From Eubacteriales bacterium (lineage in GTDB: Bacteria > Bacillota > Clostridia > Oscillospirales > CAG-272), in assembly GCA_045645205.1 (NCBI GenBank), contig JAZRIJ010000078.1:949-64948 (forward strand): DNA of 64,000 nucleotides, in the 5' to 3' direction. Position numbers and translations under genes: made by a program. The notes under the pieces were generated by a model that saw only the letters and a program-made list of their open reading frames with translations, had not been told where the DNA came from and did not search any database. Positions 40,877 through 52,015 of this stretch are shown here, piece by piece (within the stretch, counting starts at the first letter, position 1; the number at the start of each line of letters is the position of its first letter).

Positions 40877-40908
40877 AAAAAACGACAGGTCAAACCTGTC
40901 GTTTTTTC
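40877..40908 (+). terminator. Bidirectional intrinsic terminator
   Basis: aaaaaACGACAGGtcaaaCCTGTCGTtttttt. Confidence 0.75.
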
Positions 40909-41044
40909 TGGTGCGGGTGTTCATAACGGACTTGATTAAAAAGTATTGAATATCCGGCAGAAACACACATATTTTTTACTCACACATTTGTGTATTTCAA
41001 GGTTTCTTCGTAAAATAAAATTACAGAAACGAGGAAACAAGATT

Positions 41045-41344
41045 ATGTCAAAATTTATTGAAGAATTCTATTACGGTAACATTGATCCCCAAGCACGAAG
41101 CACTAAGCAGAACAAAACAGTTCAAAAGCAGATGGAAGTCCTAATGCTCAACGAGGAATTTCTAACTGAAGCACTCACGGGTGAAAACAAAAAGAAATTT
41201 CTTGATTTTGTCAATGCTTGGAGTATCGTCAACGGAGAATCGAATCTCGACAGTTTTATTATGGGATTTCGATTGGGAGCTAACTTTGCATACGATACTT
41301 TTGTATCAACTGAAGCACCGTTTAAGGATTTACTGAAGGAGTGA
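41045..41344 (+). CDS. Hypothetical small protein of mobile element
   Basis: Start moved to ATG 41045 (MSKFIEEFYYGNIDPQ...). This N-terminus recurs in Clostridial transposon-borne small genes, as far as I recall. Confidence 0.55.
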   Translation: MSKFIEEFYYGNIDPQARSTKQNKTVQKQMEVLMLNEEFLTEALTGENKKKFLDFVNAWSIVNGESNLDSFIMGFRLGANFAYDTFVSTEAPFKDLLKE

Positions 41345-41349
41345 AAGAT

Positions 41350-41532
41350 ATGTCAAAGAAGTATTACATAGCTCTTGATGATTATGAAAGAGGAACGATT
41401 ATCAACTGCCTTAATGAAAAGCGAAACAAACTTATTGCAAACGGCAAATATACCGATGCAGTTGATGAAGTGTTACTCAAAATCCTTAATGCAAAACAAA
41501 AGAAATTCAAAGCGGTTTACAAGGAGACTTAA
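41350..41532 (+). CDS. Hypothetical small protein of mobile element
   Basis: AAGGAG RBS and ATG at 41350 (MSKKYYIALDDYERGTIINCLNEKRN...). Confidence 0.5.
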   Translation: MSKKYYIALDDYERGTIINCLNEKRNKLIANGKYTDAVDEVLLKILNAKQKKFKAVYKET

Positions 41533-41534
41533 TT

Positions 41535-41912
41535 ATGGAAAAGCGTATTTACAACGAACAGACGGGTATCGGTTACACTCTGCAAGGTGATTATTACTTG
41601 CCTGATCTGAAACTCCCCGAACAAGAAGATAAGCCTATCGGCTTGTAGGGACAACGACATCTTAGATACATAAAGCAGCATAGGAAAATCCTTTACATTA
41701 ATCTGCTGACAAGCGGTAAATTGAATGACCACCTTACTGACATTGACAAACAGGCTGAGGATATGTTTTTTCGGCTCGTAAAACAGATGGCAGAATGCGA
41801 GGGTGTGACCGAACAACTCAAAGCCGACAATCAAATGGAGTGGGTTGTTCGGATGAATAACATCCGCAGCAGAGCCACAGAAATCGTAAATAATGATATA
41901 ATTTACAACTAA
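41535..41912 (+). pseudogene. tnpV-like gene interrupted by in-frame TAG
   Basis: Translation is MEKRIYNEQTGIGYTLQGDYYLPDLKLPEQEDKPIGL*GQRHLRYIKQHRKILYINLLTSGKLNDHL...QLKADNQMEWVVRMNNIRSRATEIVNNDIIYN. The TAG is at 41646-41648. The ORF track shows only the distal 63 aa. Confidence 0.7.
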
Positions 41913-42014
41913 CCGAAGCATGGCGGCAGGGAGAAATCTCTGCCGCCACTAAACTTTTTATAGAGCAATAAAAAAGTTTACAATCTTTTTTGAAAATGGT
42001 ATTGCTATTATTCG

Positions 42015-42062
42015 AGTTTTAGAATATAATATTATACAAGTTTTAGAATATAATATTATACA
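42015..42062 (+). promoter_or_regulatory. Tandem 24-bp repeat upstream of R-M operon (candidate operator/promoter)
   Basis: agttttagaatataatattataca occurs twice, perfectly. Each copy holds the palindrome tataatattata and a TATAAT. It lies 32 nt before the HTH-methylase start. Confidence 0.55.
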
Positions 42063-42093
42063 AGTACGAACTCAATGTATTCAGGAGGTTGTT

Positions 42094-43164
42094 ATGGAAT
42101 TTATGTCTGCAAGAGAAGCCGCTGATAAGTGGGGCATATCTCAAAGAAGAGTAGCAGTTTTGTGTTCAGAGCAAAGAATTGCTGAAGCGACTATGGTGGG
42201 TAATATGTGGATTATACCTACTTCGGCAGAAAAACCGATAGATGCAAGAAGTACACGATACAACAAAAGTGAAGAAAAAGCTGTCAAACCGTTCTTGAAA
42301 TGGGCAGGTGGTAAAGGTCAGCTCCTTAAAGAAATTGAACGCTATTATCCTTTTGCAGATGGTCATATTACAAAATATGCTGAGCCATTTGTAGGAGGCG
42401 GTGCTGTTTTATTTGACATACTTAGCAAATACGATTTAGAAGAAGTTTATATTAGCGATATTAATGCTGAACTTATTAATACGTATCGCATTATTCGTGA
42501 TGATATTAATGCACTGATAGAAATGCTTTACGCTATGCAGAATGATTTTATTCCGTTAGATACGGAAGAACGCAAAGCATATTATATGGAAAAGCGTGAG
42601 AATTTTAACGACTTAAAAGTCAATGGAAACGAGAATATCAATATTGAAAAAGCGGCATTGATGATTTTTCTTAATAAAACCTGTTTTAATGGTCTGTTCC
42701 GTGTAAATAAAAAAGGTTTGTTTAATGTTCCTATGGGAGCATATAAGAATCCTATGATTTGTGATGAAAACAACCTCAGAGCAGTATCCGAGAAATTGCA
42801 GAGAGTTACTATTGTATGTGGAGATTACAGAGAGTCGGCTGACTTTATTGACGAAAATACATTTGTTTATTTTGATCCTCCATACAGACCTATTACCGAT
42901 ACAGCAAGTTTTACTGCATATACCGAGAACTTGTTTAATGACGAGGAACAAATTGAACTTGCACGATTTGTTGATGATATGCATAGAAAAGGTGCAAAAG
43001 TCGTTATTAGTAATTCCGATCCAAAGAACTCAAATACAGAAGATGATTTCTTTGATAACATTTATTCAGCTCATAAAATCAAACGAGTTGAAGCAACACG
43101 AATGATTAACTGCCAAGCGCAAGCAAGAGGAAAAATTAAAGAGTTGCTTATTAGCAATTTTTAA
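42094..43164 (+). CDS. Dam-family (D12 class) N6-adenine DNA methyltransferase with N-terminal HTH domain
   Basis: Has the KWAGGKGQLL and FVYFDPPY motifs. The first ~50 aa form an HTH (AREAADKWGISQRRVAVLCSEQRI). Confidence 0.9.
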   Translation: MEFMSAREAADKWGISQRRVAVLCSEQRIAEATMVGNMWIIPTSAEKPIDARSTRYNKSEEKAVKPFLKWAGGKGQLLKEIERYYPFADGHITKYAEPFVGGGAVLFDILSKYDLEEVYISDINAELINTYRIIRDDINALIEMLYAMQNDFIPLDTEERKAYYMEKRENFNDLKVNGNENINIEKAALMIFLNKTCFNGLFRVNKKGLFNVPMGAYKNPMICDENNLRAVSEKLQRVTIVCGDYRESADFIDENTFVYFDPPYRPITDTASFTAYTENLFNDEEQIELARFVDDMHRKGAKVVISNSDPKNSNTEDDFFDNIYSAHKIKRVEATRMINCQAQARGKIKELLISNF

Positions 43165-43175
43165 GGAGAATTGAT

Positions 43176-43712
43176 ATGGATATTAGAGAAGGTACTCAGC
43201 TTATAGAAAATGGCACGAAAAAGGCAATTATAGAATTTGTGTTCACCGATTATATTATTTATGTTTTTCAAGGAAATTTATCTCAGTTTGATATTGTAAT
43301 TAAATACAAAAAAGACGGAAAACGCATTAGAACGCCGAAGCATATCCATTGGGTAGTAGATATTTTGATGAAAATGCAAGGGAATGAAGAACTTGCAAAG
43401 AAGTATCTTTTAGCTATACAAAACTGTTGGAATACTTGTGTTCCTCTTTCAAACAACGACTTTGAAACATTGAAGGGTTTAATTGAAAATGGCGAAAAAG
43501 ATATTGAAATAGAACAGTATTTTGATCTGAATGCCTTTGGTGAATACGATGTTGAATTTCTGTATGTTTTAATGGAATTGTTAGCAGTGCAAGAAAAGAC
43601 TAATAGAGCAGATGCCTATATGTTTGGTAAAATCATAGAGGAATTGCTTGAAGCTGACAGAGATATTTTCAAAATTATCTCTACGGCCGGATTTGGTGGA
43701 AGAAGGGGTTAA
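43176..43712 (+). CDS. Hypothetical protein embedded in R-M operon
   Basis: 178 aa with an AAGGAGA RBS. Gaps to its neighbours are 11 nt and 1 nt. I recognise no motif. Confidence 0.6.
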   Translation: MDIREGTQLIENGTKKAIIEFVFTDYIIYVFQGNLSQFDIVIKYKKDGKRIRTPKHIHWVVDILMKMQGNEELAKKYLLAIQNCWNTCVPLSNNDFETLKGLIENGEKDIEIEQYFDLNAFGEYDVEFLYVLMELLAVQEKTNRADAYMFGKIIEELLEADRDIFKIISTAGFGGRRG

Positions 43713-43713
43713 T

Positions 43714-44595
43714 ATGTCAAATAGAGATTTTAATGCGTGGTTATCAAGCTTTCGTGATAGTATCGCAGATTATGGTTATTACATAGATTTTGAAAAGGTT
43801 CACAGAAACGTCGATAATATCAAGGTCGAACTTAATATCTTAAATTCTCTCATCGGCTCTAAAAATATTGAGGCTGATTTTGAGAATTTGCTGAGAAAAT
43901 ATCCTGAAGTATTGAAGTGTATCCCTCTACTCTTAGCAGTTAGAGCAAATGAAATATACTGTCAGGATGAAAATGGTGGGCATTTATTCCAATTTGATTT
44001 TGGAAAGTATCCGCCGAACAGTCACGCTCATTACGAAAGATACAAATATTTTATGCGGGAAACCGGATTGTTTGATTTGTTAGAAAATCATATCGTGAAT
44101 AATTTGGTTGACTATGTAACGGGCGTTGAAACAGGTCTTGATTCCAACGGCCGCAAGAATCGTGGCGGTCACCTTATGGAAGATTTGGTCGAGAGCTTTA
44201 TTCAAAAAGCAGGTTTCTTAAAAGGTGTTAATTACTTCAAGGAAATGTATATACACCAAATTACAGACAAATGGAACATAGATTTATCCGCTATTTCCAA
44301 CCAAGGCAAGATGGAAAAACGCTTTGATTTTGTCGTTAATACACCAAATATGATCTACGGTATTGAAACTAACTTCTATGGAAGCGGCGGTAGTAAGTTG
44401 AACGAAACTGCACGAAGTTATAAAACTCTTGCGTGGGAAACTGAAGAAATCGACGGTTTTACATTCGTTTGGTTTACCGATGGAAAAGGATGGACAAGTG
44501 CACGAAACAACCTCGAAGAAACTTTTGATGTTATGCAGCACATCTACAACATTAAGGATTTGGAAGATGGTGTAATTAGCGAGGTTTTTAAATAA
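43714..44595 (+). CDS. Type II restriction endonuclease, DpnII/MboI family (predicted GATC)
   Basis: The blocks NLVDYVTGVETGLDSNGRKNRGG, ETNFYGSGGSKLNETARSY and FVWFTDGKGW match conserved blocks of R.DpnII/R.MboI. I place the start at ATG 43714 after a GAAGGGG RBS. Confidence 0.85.
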   Translation: MSNRDFNAWLSSFRDSIADYGYYIDFEKVHRNVDNIKVELNILNSLIGSKNIEADFENLLRKYPEVLKCIPLLLAVRANEIYCQDENGGHLFQFDFGKYPPNSHAHYERYKYFMRETGLFDLLENHIVNNLVDYVTGVETGLDSNGRKNRGGHLMEDLVESFIQKAGFLKGVNYFKEMYIHQITDKWNIDLSAISNQGKMEKRFDFVVNTPNMIYGIETNFYGSGGSKLNETARSYKTLAWETEEIDGFTFVWFTDGKGWTSARNNLEETFDVMQHIYNIKDLEDGVISEVFK

Positions 44596-45341
44596 TGGCA
44601 AAGAAAATAACAAAATGGGAGCCGGAAGATTTTGAGTTAGAAATGACTACACATTGGTCTTTTCCAAAACGTGGTGATTGGGCGACACACGATGCGAAAT
44701 GGCGTGGTAATTGGTCGCCATATATCCCTCGAAACATTCTGCTCCGCTATTCAAAAGAGAACGATTTGGTTCTCGATCAGTTTGCGGGTGGTGGTACTAC
44801 CCTTGTAGAAGCGAAATTACTAAACAGAAACATTATCGGTGTAGATGTTAATGATGTTGCTCTTGCTCGTTGTAAAGAAAAAACTGCATTTGAACACGAA
44901 GGTGCAAACGGTAAAGTGTATCTTCATAAGGGTGATGCACGAAATCTTGATTTCGTGCCAGATAATAGCATTGATTTGATCTGTACCCACCCACCTTATG
45001 CTGATATTATTCAATACAGCGAATATATTCCTGAAGATTTATCTTTGTTAAAGGTAAAAGATTTTCTTGAGGAAATGAAAAAGGTTGCTTCAGAGAGCTA
45101 CCGTGTTTTAAAAAAGGACAAGTTCTGTGCAGTTCTTATGGGTGATACACGCCAAAAAGGTCATATGATACCGATGTCATTTAATGTAATGCATATATTT
45201 GAAGAAGCAGGTTTTAAGTTGAAAGAACTGATTATCAAAGAACAACATAATTGTAAGGCAACAGGATATTGGAAAACCAATAGTGTAAAATATAATTTTT
45301 TGCTTATAGCACACGAGTATTTGTTCGTGTTTAGAAAATAG
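44595..45341 (+). CDS. Second DNA methyltransferase (N6A/N4C amino-MTase family)
   Basis: AdoMet motif VLDQFAGGGTT and catalytic THPPY. Its position equals the second MTase of MboI/DpnII-type cassettes. Its start overlaps the upstream stop (TAATG). Confidence 0.75.
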   Translation: MAKKITKWEPEDFELEMTTHWSFPKRGDWATHDAKWRGNWSPYIPRNILLRYSKENDLVLDQFAGGGTTLVEAKLLNRNIIGVDVNDVALARCKEKTAFEHEGANGKVYLHKGDARNLDFVPDNSIDLICTHPPYADIIQYSEYIPEDLSLLKVKDFLEEMKKVASESYRVLKKDKFCAVLMGDTRQKGHMIPMSFNVMHIFEEAGFKLKELIIKEQHNCKATGYWKTNSVKYNFLLIAHEYLFVFRK

Positions 45342-45351
45342 GAGGGTTAAA

Positions 45352-46797
45352 ATGAGAGAGTACGAATATAAGGTTATATCAATCAACGAACTATATGTAA
45401 ATCCTGAAAACTATAGATATATAAACGATGCGGATGATGAAATAGATGCAATAATTTGTATGTTCAATGTTGTTACTGGCGCACCAACAAAAGAAATGTT
45501 AAACTTATCAAAGGATATTGTTGAAGATGGTTTAAACCCTTTTGAAATGCCTATCGTTTGCTTTGATGATGATTTAAAAAAATATGTTGTGTACGAAGGC
45601 AATAGGCGTGTCACCTGTATAAAATTGATGACACAATACAAGAATAACGACAGAATATTGGAAAAAGTGTCGTTTGTAAGCGAAATATATAAACTTGAAT
45701 GCAGCATCAATGAAATCCAATGTGTTGTTTATAATAAAGCTGATGATGCAAAACACTTTTTATATAAAATTCATCAAGATGTTAATGGTGGTATTGGGCG
45801 TAAACAATGGGATTACCAAGCAAAAATGAAAGCGGAGGCTGCTATAGGAAATAAAAGTAGAGCGTACTCTATAGTAGAGTTTTTGAAAGAAAATCCCAAG
45901 ACAGATACATCATTGGTAAAAGCGATGGATACAAATCGCTGGATATCAAAATTAGAAAGAGTAGTAGGCTTTGCCAAATTTAAAGAAGTATACAACATAA
46001 CGTTTGATTCTAGCAATTCCATAGTATATAAAGATACAGAAGAGCAAGTATTACTAATGCTATCAAAACTAGTATCTGATTTAATATGCAATTCTGCTAC
46101 CGACAATTTTAGATTCAAAAAAGATTTTGATAATTATGTAGGCAACCTTGCAGATGAATTTAAAACACAAGTTAAGGAAACACCTACCAATCAAGAACAA
46201 TCTGTCACATATGTATCTAAAAATAAGGAAAACGACAGAAAGGTATCTACACAAGATATTCAATCAGAAAATGATACCAATAACAGCAACAATGAATCTG
46301 TAGTTGATGAACTTCCGGCAACCGGCGAGCCTCGTCGCTTAACGAGAAAAACCTTAATTGAAAAAGCTGCTTTGCAACTTGGCAAAAAATATGCAGATGC
46401 TGACTATGAATGTTTGAATGAAAAAGGTAAGCAAATATTACTTGAATTAGAATCTCTAAACATTAAAGAATTTCCGTTTGCATCGGCTGCGTTATGCAGA
46501 GCTTTATTGGAATGTGTTTTGAAACTATGGATTGATGCTGAAGGCGGGGTTTCTTTCAATTCTAATACTTTGCCCAGTACATATAATGGATGTCTAAATG
46601 TTCTTAGAACAAAGAATATTATAGATAATAAAGAACATAGCGTATTGAAAGCACAAGTAAATAAAGAGGACTATATCACTTTGTTAAATACTTGGATTCA
46701 TTCAGATACAAGTGCTTGCGTTTCTGAAACCAATCTCGTTAGCGGATGGAAAAACACAAGACTGTTAATTGAGAAATATATAGATACCCATAAATAG
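45352..46797 (+). CDS. ParB/Srx N-terminal-domain protein with long unknown C-terminal region
   Basis: The N-terminus ...ISINELYVNPENYRY... and the VYEGNRRVTCIKL box (GxRR) indicate a ParB-like fold. The middle is a low-complexity Asn/Ser/Thr linker. The C-terminal ~150 aa is helical. Confidence 0.65.
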   Translation: MREYEYKVISINELYVNPENYRYINDADDEIDAIICMFNVVTGAPTKEMLNLSKDIVEDGLNPFEMPIVCFDDDLKKYVVYEGNRRVTCIKLMTQYKNNDRILEKVSFVSEIYKLECSINEIQCVVYNKADDAKHFLYKIHQDVNGGIGRKQWDYQAKMKAEAAIGNKSRAYSIVEFLKENPKTDTSLVKAMDTNRWISKLERVVGFAKFKEVYNITFDSSNSIVYKDTEEQVLLMLSKLVSDLICNSATDNFRFKKDFDNYVGNLADEFKTQVKETPTNQEQSVTYVSKNKENDRKVSTQDIQSENDTNNSNNESVVDELPATGEPRRLTRKTLIEKAALQLGKKYADADYECLNEKGKQILLELESLNIKEFPFASAALCRALLECVLKLWIDAEGGVSFNSNTLPSTYNGCLNVLRTKNIIDNKEHSVLKAQVNKEDYITLLNTWIHSDTSACVSETNLVSGWKNTRLLIEKYIDTHK

Positions 46798-46819
46798 TGA
46801 AATGAGATGGAATGTATAA

Positions 46820-48232
46820 ATGGATATTCTTTTAGTTGAAGCTGATTATAAAAATAAATATCCTCCTTTAGGGTTGATGAAAATTAGTGCTTATCACAAG
46901 AGCGTAGGAGATAATGTTATTTTCGTAAAAGGAAAAAATAAGGAACTTAAATCAAAAAAGTGGGATAGAATTTATATTACTACTTTATTTACATTTTATT
47001 GGAAAAAAACTATAGAAACGATCAAATATTATTACAAATCTGTTGAGCAACCCGGTAATATTTATGTTGGTGGTATTTTGGCTACATTATTAGAGCAAGA
47101 ACTTAGAAGTGAGCCTGAAATTAAAGGAATTACTATTATGTCTGGGTTATTAGATAAGTCTAATATGTTAGGCCACGAGCTTGTTCCTATAGATCGTATA
47201 ACACCAGATTATTCTATAATTAGCAAGGATAACAACCCTTATCTTGAATATGAATATGAAGTACAAAATGCCTATATTACATCAACAACAAAAGGCTGTA
47301 TAAGAAAATGTGCTTTTTGTGCTGTAAGTGTTTTAGAACCAAAATATTGTGAATATCTTGATATTAAAGGTCAAATTAAAGAAATTAATACTTTATATGG
47401 AGAAAAGCGTGATTTGATGCTAATGGATAATAATATACTGGCATCAAGCAGATTGACTGAAATAGTAGATGATTTAGTTTCTTTGGGTTTTGAAAGAAAC
47501 AATAAATCATACAGAAAAGTTCAAGGTAAACGAGTTGTTCATCAAAATAGAAGAGTTGATTTTAATCAAGGTATTGATGCAAGATTGTTAACAGAAGATA
47601 AGATGGCACAATTGGCAAGATTGGAGATTCATCCATTAAGAATCGCATTTGATCATGCTGATGAAGAAAATGTTAAGATATATGTAAGAGCACAAAAACT
47701 TGCTGCAAAATATAAAATAAAGACTCTTTCAAATTACATACTTTTTAATTTTAATGACACACCTAAAGAATTGTATGATAGACTTAAAATTAACATTGAA
47801 TTAAATGAAGAATTTAATTTGCAAGGTTTAGAAACGAGCATTTGGTCTTTTCCTATGAAATATATGCCTATCTCTGGGGAACATTGCAAAGATAGAAAAT
47901 ATGTGGGAAAACATTGGAATTCAAAAATGTTAAGAGGAGTTCAGTGTATATTAAATGCAACTCATGCTGTTGTAGGTCCCAAAAAGGATTATTTTGAACT
48001 TGCTTTCGGACGCAATTATGATGAATTTATAGAGTTGATTTATATGCCCGAGTTATATATAACAAAAAGAAAACAGAACTCTGCTCAAATTAATAAATGG
48101 AAAACCAATTTTAAAAAATTGTCGCAAACAGAAAGAGAAGAGTTTATATCTTTAATAAAAAACAATTCATTTCCTAAATTAGATATTAAAAATCCTATTA
48201 TACGAGACTTGTATGAATGCTATTATAAATAA
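46820..48232 (+). CDS. B12-binding-domain-type radical SAM protein
   Basis: The N-terminus YPPLGLMKISAYHKSVGDNVIFV is typical of the B12-binding-like domain of class B/related rSAMs. The CxxxCxxC cluster motif is GCIRKCAFCAV. Confidence 0.75.
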   Translation: MDILLVEADYKNKYPPLGLMKISAYHKSVGDNVIFVKGKNKELKSKKWDRIYITTLFTFYWKKTIETIKYYYKSVEQPGNIYVGGILATLLEQELRSEPEIKGITIMSGLLDKSNMLGHELVPIDRITPDYSIISKDNNPYLEYEYEVQNAYITSTTKGCIRKCAFCAVSVLEPKYCEYLDIKGQIKEINTLYGEKRDLMLMDNNILASSRLTEIVDDLVSLGFERNNKSYRKVQGKRVVHQNRRVDFNQGIDARLLTEDKMAQLARLEIHPLRIAFDHADEENVKIYVRAQKLAAKYKIKTLSNYILFNFNDTPKELYDRLKINIELNEEFNLQGLETSIWSFPMKYMPISGEHCKDRKYVGKHWNSKMLRGVQCILNATHAVVGPKKDYFELAFGRNYDEFIELIYMPELYITKRKQNSAQINKWKTNFKKLSQTEREEFISLIKNNSFPKLDIKNPIIRDLYECYYK

Positions 48233-48367
48233 GCTTAATCACGGGTGATCTATTCCCGAAAAAACAGGTTTAATAGGGAAGATTTATACTATTATATCAT
48301 CTGTTAATTTTTACGTTCTAATAAAGGATATTGTTAACTCGAAAATTGTTTTTATTTATAAAAACCA

Positions 48368-48397
48368 CTTGACAAACGAATGTTCTATCGTGTATAC
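48368..48397 (+). promoter_or_regulatory. Candidate sigma-A promoter driving non-coding transcript
   Basis: TTGACA, 18-nt spacer, TATACT. Confidence 0.5.
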
Positions 48398-48402
48398 TGA
48401 AA

Positions 48403-48665
48403 TACCCTCATAGAGGGAATACAACTGAATATGATGTCCTCGTAGAGGTATAGTTAGGTACAAGTCCGCTATACCGCCGGCGATCTCTTTTGAGAAAGCC
48501 GTGACTCGCCACCGTGAATTTTTTGTACTGTTTAAGGTGGAGTTGAGCCGACACAAACAGTATGGTCTTTTGAATTAATTCAAAGCCGTTATGTATGAGC
48601 ATCTGATTTGAAGCGAGAGCTAAACGCTCCCGTCGATGATTAGTGTTGATACATAACGGCTTTTT
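48403..48665 (+). ncRNA. Candidate structured ncRNA (~260 nt), class unknown
   Basis: No credible ORF. Successive hairpins: ccctc/gaggg, cctc/gagg, ggtatag/ctatacc, ggcga/tcgcc, ccacc/ggtgg, tttgaatt/aattcaaa. It closes with the 14-bp stem aagccgttatgtat/atacataacggctt plus a T-run. Confidence 0.4.
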
Positions 48666-49007
48666 GTCTTTTCTCGGACTACTTAGCCGAAATATGAATG
48701 TGACATATAACCTCAGTTGCACTTTGAAAATTGAATACCCGTTACCGAATGTAGATACTACGCTAAGACCTCATAAAGAGCGAGCGAAAACGATGTGTAG
48801 CAAGATGCTATGGGTTAGGAATTAACGGACATTCGGGAGAACGGCAAAGCGCCTAATAGGAGTAATTAACCTCGAACAGGCTCGGAGTAATTGCATCATC
48901 TTAGCGAGCAGACTGTTTGTACTCCTATCGGCGCAAAACAGTACTCGTTAGGGATATCCCTAAAACCCAATTCTACGAAATCAAACAAAGAAAGGAGATC
49001 AAAATCT

Positions 49008-49903
49008 ATGACACAGTATGAAATCCCAAACGAAAGCAAAAAGAAAAAATCCGCCCGTATCCCCATAGATAAGCTACACGATTTTGACGGTCATCCGTAC
49101 AAGGTCACAGACAATGAGGATATGGACAAGCTTGTAGAAAGTATTAAGTCGCAAGGCATTATCTCGCCCTTAATAGTAAGGCAGAAAGATAACACAACCG
49201 ATGAATACGAAGTAATAGCGGGACACCGAAGATTGCACGCAAGTAAAAGGGTGGGACTGATGGTTGTACCCGCCTTAATTTATCCCTATACCAAACCCGA
49301 AGCGGCGATTGCCGTTGTGGACAGCAACCTACACAGAGAACGGATATTGCCGAGCGAAAAAGCCTTTGCTTACAAAATGAAAATGGAGGCTTTGAAAGAG
49401 CAAGGCAAACGAACCGATTTAACCTCGTCGCAAGTTGCGACAAAGTCGGATACCGCTACTGAGATCGGCAAGGCAGCAAACGAAAGCCGTGACCAAGTGT
49501 TTCGGTATATCCGTTTAACCAATCTTATCCCCGAACTGTTACAGCTTGTGGATGAAGAACGAATCGCACTTACTCCTGCTGTGGAACTGTCCTATCTTGT
49601 CGAGCAGGAGCAGTACGATTTAATGAGTACATTGATAGTGAGGACTGCACTCCGTCACTCTCACAGGCAGTACGGCTAAAGAAATTATCCCAAGCAGGTC
49701 AGCTTAATGCGGATAAGATCTTCGCCGTTATGAGCGAAGAAAAGGTAAATCAAAAGGAACGCATCAGTTTTCCTTTTGAAGATGTCCGCCGTTTCTTCCC
49801 TAAAAGTTATACCCAAAAAGATGTATATAATGCAATCCTAAAGCTCATTGGCGAAGATTATAAACGCCGTGAGCGAGCAAGAAAAAATCGTGATGAAAGG
49901 TAA
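49008..49903 (+). pseudogene. parB-like (Spo0J-type N-terminal domain) gene with frameshift near 49629
   Basis: AAAGGAGA RBS and the IAGHRRLHAS ParB box. After ..QYDLMS the frame shifts by one nt. The continuation IDSEDCTPSLSQAVRLKKLSQAGQLNADKIF...RARKNRDER* is readable in the next frame. The length of 896 nt is not a multiple of 3. Confidence 0.7.
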
Positions 49904-49912
49904 TGAAGTATT

Positions 49913-50140
49913 ATGAAATTTATATGTGGTCTTGCACAACAAGAAAATGAGTATGTGATAAACGGAGTCAAGTATATCGTCGGTTCGTCATTTATGACTT
50001 CTAAAGTTAAAAATCATCCGACAATTACCGACCGTTTCAAAAGAATTGTAACAAGTGATTTCGTACCTTTGACGGATGAATCACCACCGAGTAAAATGGC
50101 AGTAGAATATGTGTGTTCGACTGCCGGGAAGGAGGACTAA
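49913..50140 (+). CDS. TnpW-like small transposon protein
   Basis: 75 aa with the ..INGVKYIVGSSF...DRFKRIVTSDF.. pattern I associate with TnpW-type genes. These lie next to large serine recombinases. Confidence 0.45.
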   Translation: MKFICGLAQQENEYVINGVKYIVGSSFMTSKVKNHPTITDRFKRIVTSDFVPLTDESPPSKMAVEYVCSTAGKED

Positions 50141-51835
50141 ATGCAGTCGAAGAAAAAAGACAACGTCGGCATAACTGCTTTATACTGCCGACTATCACGT
50201 GATGACGGAACGGATAACGATAGCAACTCTATCGTGAATCAAAAGAAGCTGTTGCAGAAATACGCAAAGGAACACGGCTTTTCTAACACCCGCAGTTATG
50301 TGGATGACGGCTATACGGGAACAAACTTTAACCGCCCCGGCTTTCAAAAATTGCTTGAGGATATTGAGATGGGATACGTAAGTGTGATTATCGTAAAGGA
50401 TATGTCCCGACTCGGCAGAGATTATCTGCAAGTAGGATATTACACCGACACCTACTTTCCCGATAGAAATATTCGCTTCATAGCAGTAAATGACTGTGTA
50501 GACAGTGCAGACGGTGAAAACGAACTTGCACCTTTTCGTAACGTTATGAATGAAATGTACGCAAGAGATATTAGCCGTAAGGTCAGAAGCTCCCACAGAC
50601 TTCGTGGTAACGCAGGAGAGCCGTTATCTCAGCCGCCGTATGGGTATCTGAAATCGCCCGAAAACAAAAAGAAATGGGTTATAGATCCCGAAGCCGCACA
50701 AGTGGTGCAAGATATATTCCGTATGTGCTTGGAGGGCAAAGGCAACGAAACCATTGCCCGAATCCTTCAAGAACGAAAGGTGTTAATCCCGATGGCATAT
50801 TGGAGAGAAAAAGGTCTTGGCAGAGGCGGAAAGAAAGCACAACCCAATCCTTATAAATGGTGCAAATCCACCATAGCCAAGATACTTGCTCAACAGAAAT
50901 ACTGCGGTGATGTAATCAACTTTAAGACCTATTCAAAGTCGTTCAAGAACAAAGCCCGTATCCCTAATCCTGAAGAAAATTGGGCGGTGTTCAAGAATGT
51001 GCACGATCCAATAATTGACCGTGAAACCTTTGAATCGGTGCAGAAGCTCACCAAGAAAACCAAACGTCGAGCACCGAAAGCAGACAATGCCGAAAAGAAT
51101 ATGTTTTGCGATTTGCTTTACTGTGCTGATTGCGGTAGCAAGTTATGGTCGCACGTAAACACCATAAACAAGGATATTCAATATTTCAGTTGCTCCAATT
51201 ACAAGGTGGATACAAGAGGAACTTGCGAAACACGGCACTATATCCGTGCTGATGCCATAGAGCAAGTGGTAATGCTTGAACTAAAGCGAATGGCAAAGTT
51301 CTTACAGAGCGACGAGGAAGCCTTTGCAGACCTACTTGCTCAAAAGACACAAAAGGATATTATCAATGAGCAAAAAGCCTTGCAGGGCGAACTGCAACGG
51401 TGTACGGCACGAAACCAAAAGGTTGCTGAGCTTTACGAAAAGCTTTACGAGGACAATGTTTCGGGCAAGGTAACGGATGAGTGGTTTATGCAGTTATCCC
51501 ACAAATACGAAGTAGAGCGTATGGAGCTGAAAACCAAGATTGCATCCCTAAACGAAAGGATAAACAATCTTGGTACAATGCAACAGAACAAAGACAGATT
51601 TATCAACGCTATCCGAAGATTTATGGAAATGCAAAAACTGACTGCACCACTTCTTCGTGAACTCATAGACGAGATAACGGTTTATGAAACCGAAGGTGTT
51701 GGTAAGAATCGCAGTCAGAGGATTATGATCCATTACAAATTCATTGGGTATATTGAGATACCCGAATGCGGAAGTAATTACAAGGCAGATACACGAAAAG
51801 GTGTAGCTGTCGAGTATATTACCAAATCCGCATAA
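50141..51835 (+). CDS. Large serine recombinase (TnpX/TndX-like)
   Basis: N-terminal resolvase domain with catalytic-Ser context ALYCRLSRDD, then a recombinase domain, a zinc ribbon (CDLLYCADCGSKL...C) and a coiled coil. 564 aa. Confidence 0.9.
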   Translation: MQSKKKDNVGITALYCRLSRDDGTDNDSNSIVNQKKLLQKYAKEHGFSNTRSYVDDGYTGTNFNRPGFQKLLEDIEMGYVSVIIVKDMSRLGRDYLQVGYYTDTYFPDRNIRFIAVNDCVDSADGENELAPFRNVMNEMYARDISRKVRSSHRLRGNAGEPLSQPPYGYLKSPENKKKWVIDPEAAQVVQDIFRMCLEGKGNETIARILQERKVLIPMAYWREKGLGRGGKKAQPNPYKWCKSTIAKILAQQKYCGDVINFKTYSKSFKNKARIPNPEENWAVFKNVHDPIIDRETFESVQKLTKKTKRRAPKADNAEKNMFCDLLYCADCGSKLWSHVNTINKDIQYFSCSNYKVDTRGTCETRHYIRADAIEQVVMLELKRMAKFLQSDEEAFADLLAQKTQKDIINEQKALQGELQRCTARNQKVAELYEKLYEDNVSGKVTDEWFMQLSHKYEVERMELKTKIASLNERINNLGTMQQNKDRFINAIRRFMEMQKLTAPLLRELIDEITVYETEGVGKNRSQRIMIHYKFIGYIEIPECGSNYKADTRKGVAVEYITKSA

Positions 51836-51891
51836 AACAAAAGAGCAGGCTTTAAAACCTGCTCCATACATAACGAAGAAACTCGAAATTA

Positions 51892-51934
51892 CAAAAAATC
51901 GAGTGTCCATAACTCAAATCCGTTATGAACACTC
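51892..51934 (-). terminator. Intrinsic terminator downstream of tRNA-Pro
   Basis: Minus-strand hairpin gagtgttcataac/gttatggacactc followed by a U-run. One arm is also the right copy of the island inverted repeat. Confidence 0.6.
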
Positions 51935-51938
51935 GATA

Positions 51939-52015
51939 TGGTCGGAGTGACTGGATTCGAACCAGCGGCCTCATGGACCCGAACCATGCGCACTACCAAA
52001 CTGTGCCACACCCCG
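51939..52015 (-). tRNA. tRNA-Pro (anticodon CGG)
   Basis: The minus strand reads cggggtgtggcacagtttggtagtgcgcatggttCGGgtccatgaggccgctggttcgaatccagtcactccgacca. The cloverleaf folds by hand (acceptor 7 bp, T-loop TTCGAAT) and CCA is encoded. Confidence 0.9.

Follow-up and report, generated by a model that had tools for sequence, protein, structure and literature searches.

Type II restriction-modification systems are generally regarded as modules of two enzymes, to which a C protein may be added. DpnII systems have been described as combining one endonuclease with two methylases (PMC4738411, PMC3812788). The order of the genes is dpnM-dpnA-dpnB in Streptococcus pneumoniae, and in MboI the endonuclease lies between the two methylases (M-R-M). 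In the SsoII and Ecl18kI systems it is the methylase that represses transcription, by means of a DNA-binding domain at its own N-terminus (PMC3978073, PMC2760811). The locus described here, at positions 42015–45341 of a 64,000-nucleotide stretch of contig JAZRIJ010000078.1 from an Eubacteriales bacterium (the whole stretch is referred to below as the window), is a four-gene Type II restriction-modification operon of the DpnII/MboI (GATC) kind, in which an unannotated fourth protein, here called X, is encoded between a methylase and the endonuclease. The identity of the operon, its probable autoregulation through a helix-turn-helix (HTH) domain on the methylase, a duplication private to this genome, and X as a genuine, conserved accessory of Dam/GATC modules together make up a picture that is likely to hold as a whole.

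The four open reading frames of the cassette are tightly packed on the + strand. Methylase 1 (42094–43164, 356 amino acids [aa]) is preceded by a ribosome-binding site, AGGAGG, seen directly in the sequence at 42083–42088 (+ strand), and combines a modelled Xis-like winged-helix domain (about residues 1–55) with a Dam-class (D12) N6-adenine methylase (residues 62–356). The D12 domain itself covers residues 70–338 (PF02086, 8.4e-63) and the match to TIGR00571 is 1e-86, at 290.9 bits against a cut-off of 114.85. Among solved structures the nearest is DpnM (2dpm, 6.4e-51), and its alignment is confined to residues 62–356; the N-terminal 60 or so residues are therefore extra, an additional Xis-like DNA-binding domain that the solved DpnM chain is without. 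X follows at 43176–43712 (178 aa, + strand), then the DpnII-family Type II endonuclease at 43714–44595 (293 aa, + strand), which matches PF04556 at 1.8e-113 over profile positions 1–277 of 278 and PADLOC REase_II at 5.8e-103. The last gene (44595–45341, 248 aa, + strand) encodes methylase 2, an N6_N4-type enzyme (PF01555, 1e-24; PADLOC MTase_II PDLC03376, 7.9e-154) that is only distantly related to the solved DpnA-named proteins (2.5e-4). DpnA is a methylase active on single-stranded DNA. A preliminary description of this DNA, made from the letters alone, had called a DpnII-family endonuclease accompanied by two methylases, and the profile searches agree with it on all three proteins. It had also placed a 178-aa gene lacking any recognisable motif at the coordinates of X, with gaps of 11 and 1 nucleotides (nt), and this too is correct. 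The 11-nt junction between methylase 1 and X contains an AAGGAG ribosome-binding site, X and the endonuclease are joined by TAA-t-ATG, and the endonuclease stop overlaps the methylase 2 start in TAATG.

The components that define the DpnII/MboI kind are thus all present: a DpnII-family endonuclease, a Dam-class (D12, alpha) methylase nearest to DpnM, and a second, N6_N4-type methylase. Membership of these families predicts that the system recognises and methylates GATC and cuts GATC that is unmethylated. The three-gene format (M-M-R or M-R-M) is not followed, since there are four genes, with X inserted, in an arrangement that is conserved in dozens of lineages. In contrast to the described systems, a conserved gene stands between methylase and endonuclease and is probably coupled in translation to the latter.

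That homologous cassettes carry the same inserted gene, a point raised in the preliminary description, is borne out by the database searches. A word-indexed search returned 612 homologues of X, the best 120 of which are all at least 87% identical, and among the matches listed every one with a source name is called 'hypothetical protein'. In an exhaustive search the family comprised 266 clusters at 50% identity. Relatives containing RTPKHIHW are encoded in the genomes of at least 331 species. These are spread over many phyla and are found in Clostridia, Bacilli, Mollicutes, Negativicutes, Saccharibacteria, Bacteroides, Kiritimatiellia, Cloacimonadota, Gastranaerophilales and one Gammaproteobacterium. 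The family is marked by the motifs D-I-V-I-K-Y, RTPKHIHWxxDxLxK, GEY and QEKTN. The mean pairwise distance is the same for X and the endonuclease (0.26) and slightly greater for Dam (0.29); by this comparison of sequences X is as constrained as the two enzymes. The suggestion that the extra gene is a component of the cassette stands in so far as X is real and conserved, but none of the specificity, regulatory or anti-restriction-control roles offered for it could be shown.

The AlphaFold2 (AF2) model of X has a mean predicted local distance difference test score (pLDDT) of 96.3 and a predicted template modelling score of 0.91; in it a sheet of four strands at the N-terminus precedes six helices. 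The window protein has no family match in Pfam, NCBIfam, PADLOC or PHROGs, and 69 members of the family scanned singly against Pfam at expectation values (E) up to 1 gave no consistent family. Profile search of the PDB found nothing significant (best E 3.4). Foldseek of the model likewise found no neighbour in the PDB (best E 0.66, query template modelling score [TM] at most 0.21) or in BFVD (best E 0.08), with no hit in either having a query TM above 0.30. As judged from its model and these searches, X is real and well folded and represents a new family, with no match to any described family among those searched. Searches of GenBank phages, PLSDB plasmids and IMG/VR did not return X, and a phage anti-restriction origin was dropped for this reason. 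Several more specific assignments were considered and set aside. The HEPN reading (from the Rx5H-like string in RTPKHIH) and the PD-(D/E)xK and PLD-HKD readings of the motifs come from the sequence only and have no profile or fold support. A DNA-mimic reading is rejected because the isoelectric point (pI) spans 5.0 to 10.8 across the family and net charge is therefore not conserved. A relationship to DpnD of the DpnI cassette was also considered and rejected, X having no Pfam match at all, the DpnD/PcfM family included.

The genomic contexts of X vary. In the majority the order is HTH-Dam, X, endonuclease, methylase 2, usually as cargo of small integrative mobilisable elements with integrase, NikA, Mob_Pre and TnpV. 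In Bacilli and Mollicutes the order is Dam, methylase 2', X, endonuclease, which is the classical dpnM-dpnA-dpnB with X inserted; the Bacilli variants thereby keep the exact dpnM-dpnA-...-dpnB order. Further orders are Dam-X-MutH-like-M2 and MutH-like-X-M2, with a MutH-family nuclease (PF02976, above cut-off) adjoining X in place of the DpnII-family enzyme (L064:6535-7191, L074:5228-5926, and loci L100-103, with L100:3623-4294). In loci L100-103 the MutH-like gene is followed by a DUF7004 protein and a 336-aa long form of X. If the N-terminal extension of this long form had arisen by duplication and divergence of X, a dimer would be suggested; comparison of the two does not support this origin (hhalign probability 0.7%). 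The endonuclease is split or internally deleted at two loci (L007:6521-7417 and L009:6539-7142), and at others (L001/L003-L005:7417-8163) the methylase 2 call is truncated, at 191 aa. X itself is undamaged at every one of these loci.

The distance from the X stop to the start of a DpnII-type endonuclease is -8 to +7 nt, with a median of 1, in 54 of 54 loci. Because the stop of X sits about 1 nt before the start of the endonuclease, the endonuclease is probably made by coupled translation. Such spacing, held across two methylase arrangements, is what would be expected if X were an antitoxin-like inhibitor or chaperone of the DpnII-type endonuclease, made just before it and holding it inactive until the genome is methylated. 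The two genes also travel together onto a different Dam lineage, as at locus L052, where identity to the window proteins is 69% for X and 61% for the endonuclease, but 36% for Dam. A role directed at the endonuclease is nevertheless unlikely, because X is kept where there is no such enzyme. Three Saccharibacteria species have HTH-Dam, X and methylase 2 with no endonuclease, and at least eight lineages have Dam-X only, with X intact in each case and under purifying selection (for L035 against L036, the nonsynonymous distance dN is 0.079 with the synonymous distance dS saturated). X also stands beside the non-homologous MutH-family nucleases, with variable gene order, and the rare fusions join it to methylases and to a TIR domain, never to a nuclease.

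The constant partner of X is therefore the Dam/GATC modification module rather than one nuclease family. As X stays with Dam when the nuclease becomes MutH-type or is lost, a role through Dam or GATC methylation is favoured, and X may tentatively be seen as a protein-level governor that acts via the Dam methylase or the methylation state of GATC DNA, and not on the nuclease itself. Fusions of X to Dam (P0243, a singleton, and L034) and to an N6_N4 methylase (L083) are also found. Several observations weigh against this proposal. Nothing points directly to a mechanism for X, and the tight coupling of X and endonuclease would fit an endonuclease-directed inhibitor as well. The X-methylase fusions are singletons and possibly artefacts of gene calling or frameshift, and one X-TIR fusion has no Dam nearby. 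In a mirror-tree comparison the distance correlations with X are similar for Dam (0.87) and the endonuclease (0.83), so that the partner is not separated. Lastly, the near-invariant D39, Y44, H56, D62, K66 and E140 resemble an active site more than a binding surface.

These residues, together with G33, are near-invariant over 69 diverse members of the family, and R52, P54, K55, H58, W59, Q139 and N143 are further invariant in a closer set. Such a pattern of conserved polar residues raises the alternative that X is an enzyme of new fold, for instance a metal-dependent hydrolase or nuclease whose substrate would be DNA or a nucleotide or S-adenosylmethionine (SAM)-related metabolite, and which would complement GATC methylation and restriction. 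The wide range of pI also speaks against a purely electrostatic DNA binder or DNA mimic. The enzyme reading is rather unlikely, since no similarity to a known catalytic fold or motif was found, and D62 and K66, at positions i and i+4 of one helix, could be a mere structural salt bridge.

A different alternative is raised by the fusion of X to a TIR domain (P0258, 388 aa, TIR_2 1.6e-17; L098:4408-5574), on a 7.3-kilobase (kb) contig where there is no Dam nearby, and by a PIN_12 gene directly upstream of X at locus L069, where no Dam was detected. The fusion hints that X can serve as the sensor domain of an NADase-type effector. X could on this basis be the sensor of an independent, abortive-infection-like conflict function, placed in the operon only for expression and wired elsewhere to TIR or PIN effectors, and the variable defence genes around the cassette are in keeping with this. 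That X is independent of the operon in this way is, in turn, rather improbable. In its 178-aa form X lacks an effector domain, TIR and PIN are each represented by one case as opposed to hundreds linked to Dam, and the positional and translational coupling within the operon is too regular for a hitch-hiker.

X also occupies the position just upstream of the endonuclease gene that is often held by C genes, as in PvuII, where a small gene meets the same need for delayed restriction in a new host (PMC2175313). The cassette differs from C-protein systems in that X has no HTH or XRE-family match, no similarity to C proteins and no C-box, and persists in modules that are free of an endonuclease. The model of X, a beta-sheet with a six-helix bundle, matches no regulator, X runs straight into the endonuclease gene with neither an intergenic space nor a promoter between them, and a DNA-binding role is already supplied by the methylase. 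The fold and the layout of the operon therefore effectively exclude a C-protein-like transcription factor that controls endonuclease expression. The governor proposal can be extended to one in which X represents a new class of restriction-modification governor with a new fold, reading the Dam/GATC state (GATC methylation or the methylase), gating the nuclease post-translationally and re-used as a sensor in TIR/PIN abortive infection; taken in full, this extended version is doubtful.

The second unusual feature of the cassette is the N-terminus of methylase 1, for which an HTH domain had been proposed. The region is strongly conserved over 30 loci or lineages and has a PHROG excisionase match (1e-5) and an HTH_17 match (1.5e-4, 22.4 bits). 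A 66-residue AF2 model, built from 38 homologues, has a pLDDT of about 90 over residues 1–50 and consists of a strand, two helices and a beta-hairpin wing. Its top structural matches are the Xis proteins of lambda and HK022 on DNA, BldC and Pukovnik Xis; against lambda Xis-DNA (1rh6_B) the target TM is 0.75, with a root-mean-square deviation of 1.8 Å over 50 columns. Because of this fold and the matches to Xis and BldC, the N-terminus of methylase 1 is, as modelled, a winged helix of the Xis/MerR type, and the earlier proposal is upheld. Set against this are the HTH_17 match, which is below the Pfam gathering threshold of 27, and the weak Foldseek E of the 66-residue model (0.06), though the TM is 0.75.

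The domain is not always joined to the methylase. In Campylobacter lari a stand-alone 86-aa Xis-like HTH protein is encoded directly upstream of a 294-aa Dam (L105:5001-6153). At that locus Dam is followed by an HTH_3 gene, two further D12 methylases and an AlwI-family endonuclease, and X is absent. In the X-cassettes of Bacilli (L052:4148-5197 and L059:4156-5199, also L053 and L054) the Dam N-terminus carries an XRE-type HTH_3 (4.7e-16) and no Xis-like domain. As this HTH is unrelated, the fusion of an HTH to Dam arose at least twice independently, by convergence.

Alignment of the upstream regions of relatives identifies one shared promoter. In the window it has a -35 box TTGCTA (42002–42007), a 17-base-pair (bp) spacer and a -10 box TATAAT (42025–42030) on the + strand, scoring 10 of 12 in a consensus scan. 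The block TTGCTATTATTC-N8-GAATATAAT has near-maximal information across 46 distinct HTH-Dam lineages, while the directly adjoining DNA on both sides is randomised, and this block of promoter and spacer is kept although Dam identity drops to 56–60%. Within the spacer, and overlapping the -10 box, is an operator-like palindrome, TATTCGA-GTTT-TAGAATA (42009–42026). Its general form is TATTC(G/T)A-N4-TAGAATA (18 bp), with perfect 7 + 7 arms in Saccharibacteria and 6 of 7 in the window. The motif is upstream of 46 of 47 distinct Dam genes with the Xis-like HTH and of none of 24 Dam genes without it. It has a single exact match in the 64-kb window, where the chance expectation is 0.45 at no more than one mismatch. 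Comparison of these regions indicates that the 18-bp spacer palindrome, and not the tandem repeat described below, is the conserved control element, and the candidate operator DNA for the HTH domain or the methylase is TATTCGAGTTTTAGAATA.

Transcription of the operon would start from this one promoter, with the HTH-Dam methylase as the first product. Two copies of the Xis-type domain could then bind the 18-bp palindrome between the -35 and -10 boxes, and the accumulated methylase would block RNA polymerase and shut the operon off, by analogy with M.SsoII and M.Ecl18kI. It is on this analogy probable that the operon switches itself off via the DNA-binding domain on its methylase. Two points weigh against such autoregulation. 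The Xis-like HTH-Dam loci all share ancestry, and the contrast of 46 of 47 with 0 of 24 is therefore partly phylogenetic. In addition, the DNA sites of Xis and BldC-type domains are often direct repeats, bound head-to-tail, and not palindromes.

The likeness to SsoII and Ecl18kI lies in an N-terminal DNA-binding region of about 60–70 residues on the methylase, in a palindromic candidate operator in the promoter region, and in a logic by which the methylase would build up first and then limit expression (PMC3978073, PMC2760811). There are differences too. Theirs are C5-cytosine methylases with an operator between separate R and M genes, whereas the cassette has an N6-adenine Dam-class enzyme at the head of a one-direction operon, a candidate site inside a single promoter, and a DNA-binding fold that is modelled as an Xis-like winged helix. 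The cassette resembles this class in its presumed autoregulation and is not a member of it.

The preliminary description had placed the control of the operon elsewhere, in a tandem repeat of two 24-bp copies upstream of methylase 1, each with a palindrome, that together with the HTH would form a built-in controller in place of a separate C protein. The repeat is real. Two copies of GTTTTAGAATATAATATTATACAA, at 42016–42039 and 42040–42063 on the + strand, are both perfect, far beyond chance expectation, and each contains the palindrome TATAATATTATA (42025–42036 and 42049–42060); the distance to the ATG at 42094 is 30 nt, not the 32 nt given before. The palindrome TATAATATTATA, which had been taken as the key element, is the -10 box and its flank, and it is not conserved across lineages. 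The repeat unit is present as a single copy in six independent metagenome contigs with an X protein 100% identical to that of the window, and the 46 other HTH-Dam lineages all likewise have one copy. The tandem repeat therefore arose recently and is private to this genome or its assembly, and the AG dinucleotide shared by the repeat junctions suggests replication slippage as its origin.

What the duplication copies is the right operator half-site together with the -10 box. A second, weaker operator-like site, TATACAAGTTTTAGAATA (42033–42050), arises incidentally; it lies at a distance of 24 bp from the first and departs from the pattern at one position. This second site might be thought to argue for an evolved array of operators for the HTH domain, particularly as Xis/BldC-type domains can bind direct repeats cooperatively and the structural matches to the HTH model include such complexes. 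An evolved array is very unlikely all the same, in view of the single-copy relatives, which already refute the repeat as a conserved operator, and of the conserved element being a single palindrome inside the promoter spacer. What remains of the earlier suggestion is a built-in controller composed of the methylase-fused HTH and the spacer palindrome, which is plausible from their co-occurrence; the tandem repeat has no part in it as a conserved operator.

An integrated Tn4451-like mobilisable element carries the cassette as cargo, in an island of about 11 kb at approximately 40900–52015. The island holds, in this order, DUF6809, TnpV, the cassette and then genes for a PD-Lambda-5_A-like, a radical-SAM and a ParB-like protein and for a large serine recombinase; its end lies beside tRNA-Pro. 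The TnpV gene (41535–41912) has an in-frame stop at codon 38, which is tryptophan in the close relative L089, where the gene is intact; from this comparison the window copy is probably a pseudogene. Downstream, the 470-aa radical-SAM protein is encoded at 46820–48232 on the + strand (phrog_9298, 6.8e-48), the ParB-like gene lies at 48891–49679 and the large serine recombinase, with DUF4368, at 50141–51835, and the element is adjoined by tRNA-Pro(cgg) at 51939–52015 on the minus strand.

The PD-Lambda-5_A-like gene (45352–46797, + strand) starts 10 nt after methylase 2 and matches PADLOC PDLC03998 at 2.4e-62. PD-Lambda-5 is a two-gene defence system of Escherichia coli described as a compacted combination of restriction-modification and abortive infection (PMC9519451), and the Dam of the cassette weakly matches its other component, PD-Lambda-5_B (5.2e-15). 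The cassette differs from that system in that the PD-Lambda-5_A-like gene is a neighbour outside the four-gene core, in a slot that varies among relatives, which carry other genes there, for example a 292-aa protein and an AAA_5 ATPase. A scan for terminator-like sites on the + strand found none within the four cassette genes, and the only one in the scanned stretch is a 5-pair stem at 46487–46499, inside the PD-Lambda-5_A-like gene. The PD-Lambda-5_A-like and radical-SAM genes may share the transcript of the cassette, and possibly also its methylation mark.

GATC has an observed/expected ratio of 0.56 in the 64-kb window by Markov expectation. Avoidance of GATC was rejected as a distinctive signal of the window, since several other palindromes are more depleted (CTAG 0.11, GGCC 0.13, CATG 0.35 and CCGG 0.37). 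The depletion of short palindromes suggests past exposure to several restriction systems.

With their conserved promoter and candidate operator, and with an HTH joined to Dam on two independent occasions, these operons offer a clean, testable case of autoregulation by an adenine methylase. The function of X could reveal a new way in which mobile restriction-modification systems control toxicity or sense methylation. If X is indeed a governor, it would add a protein-level layer of control for Type II systems, beside C proteins, methylase-HTH fusions and antisense RNAs. Its function would also give a role to a gene family that is widespread in the gut microbiome.

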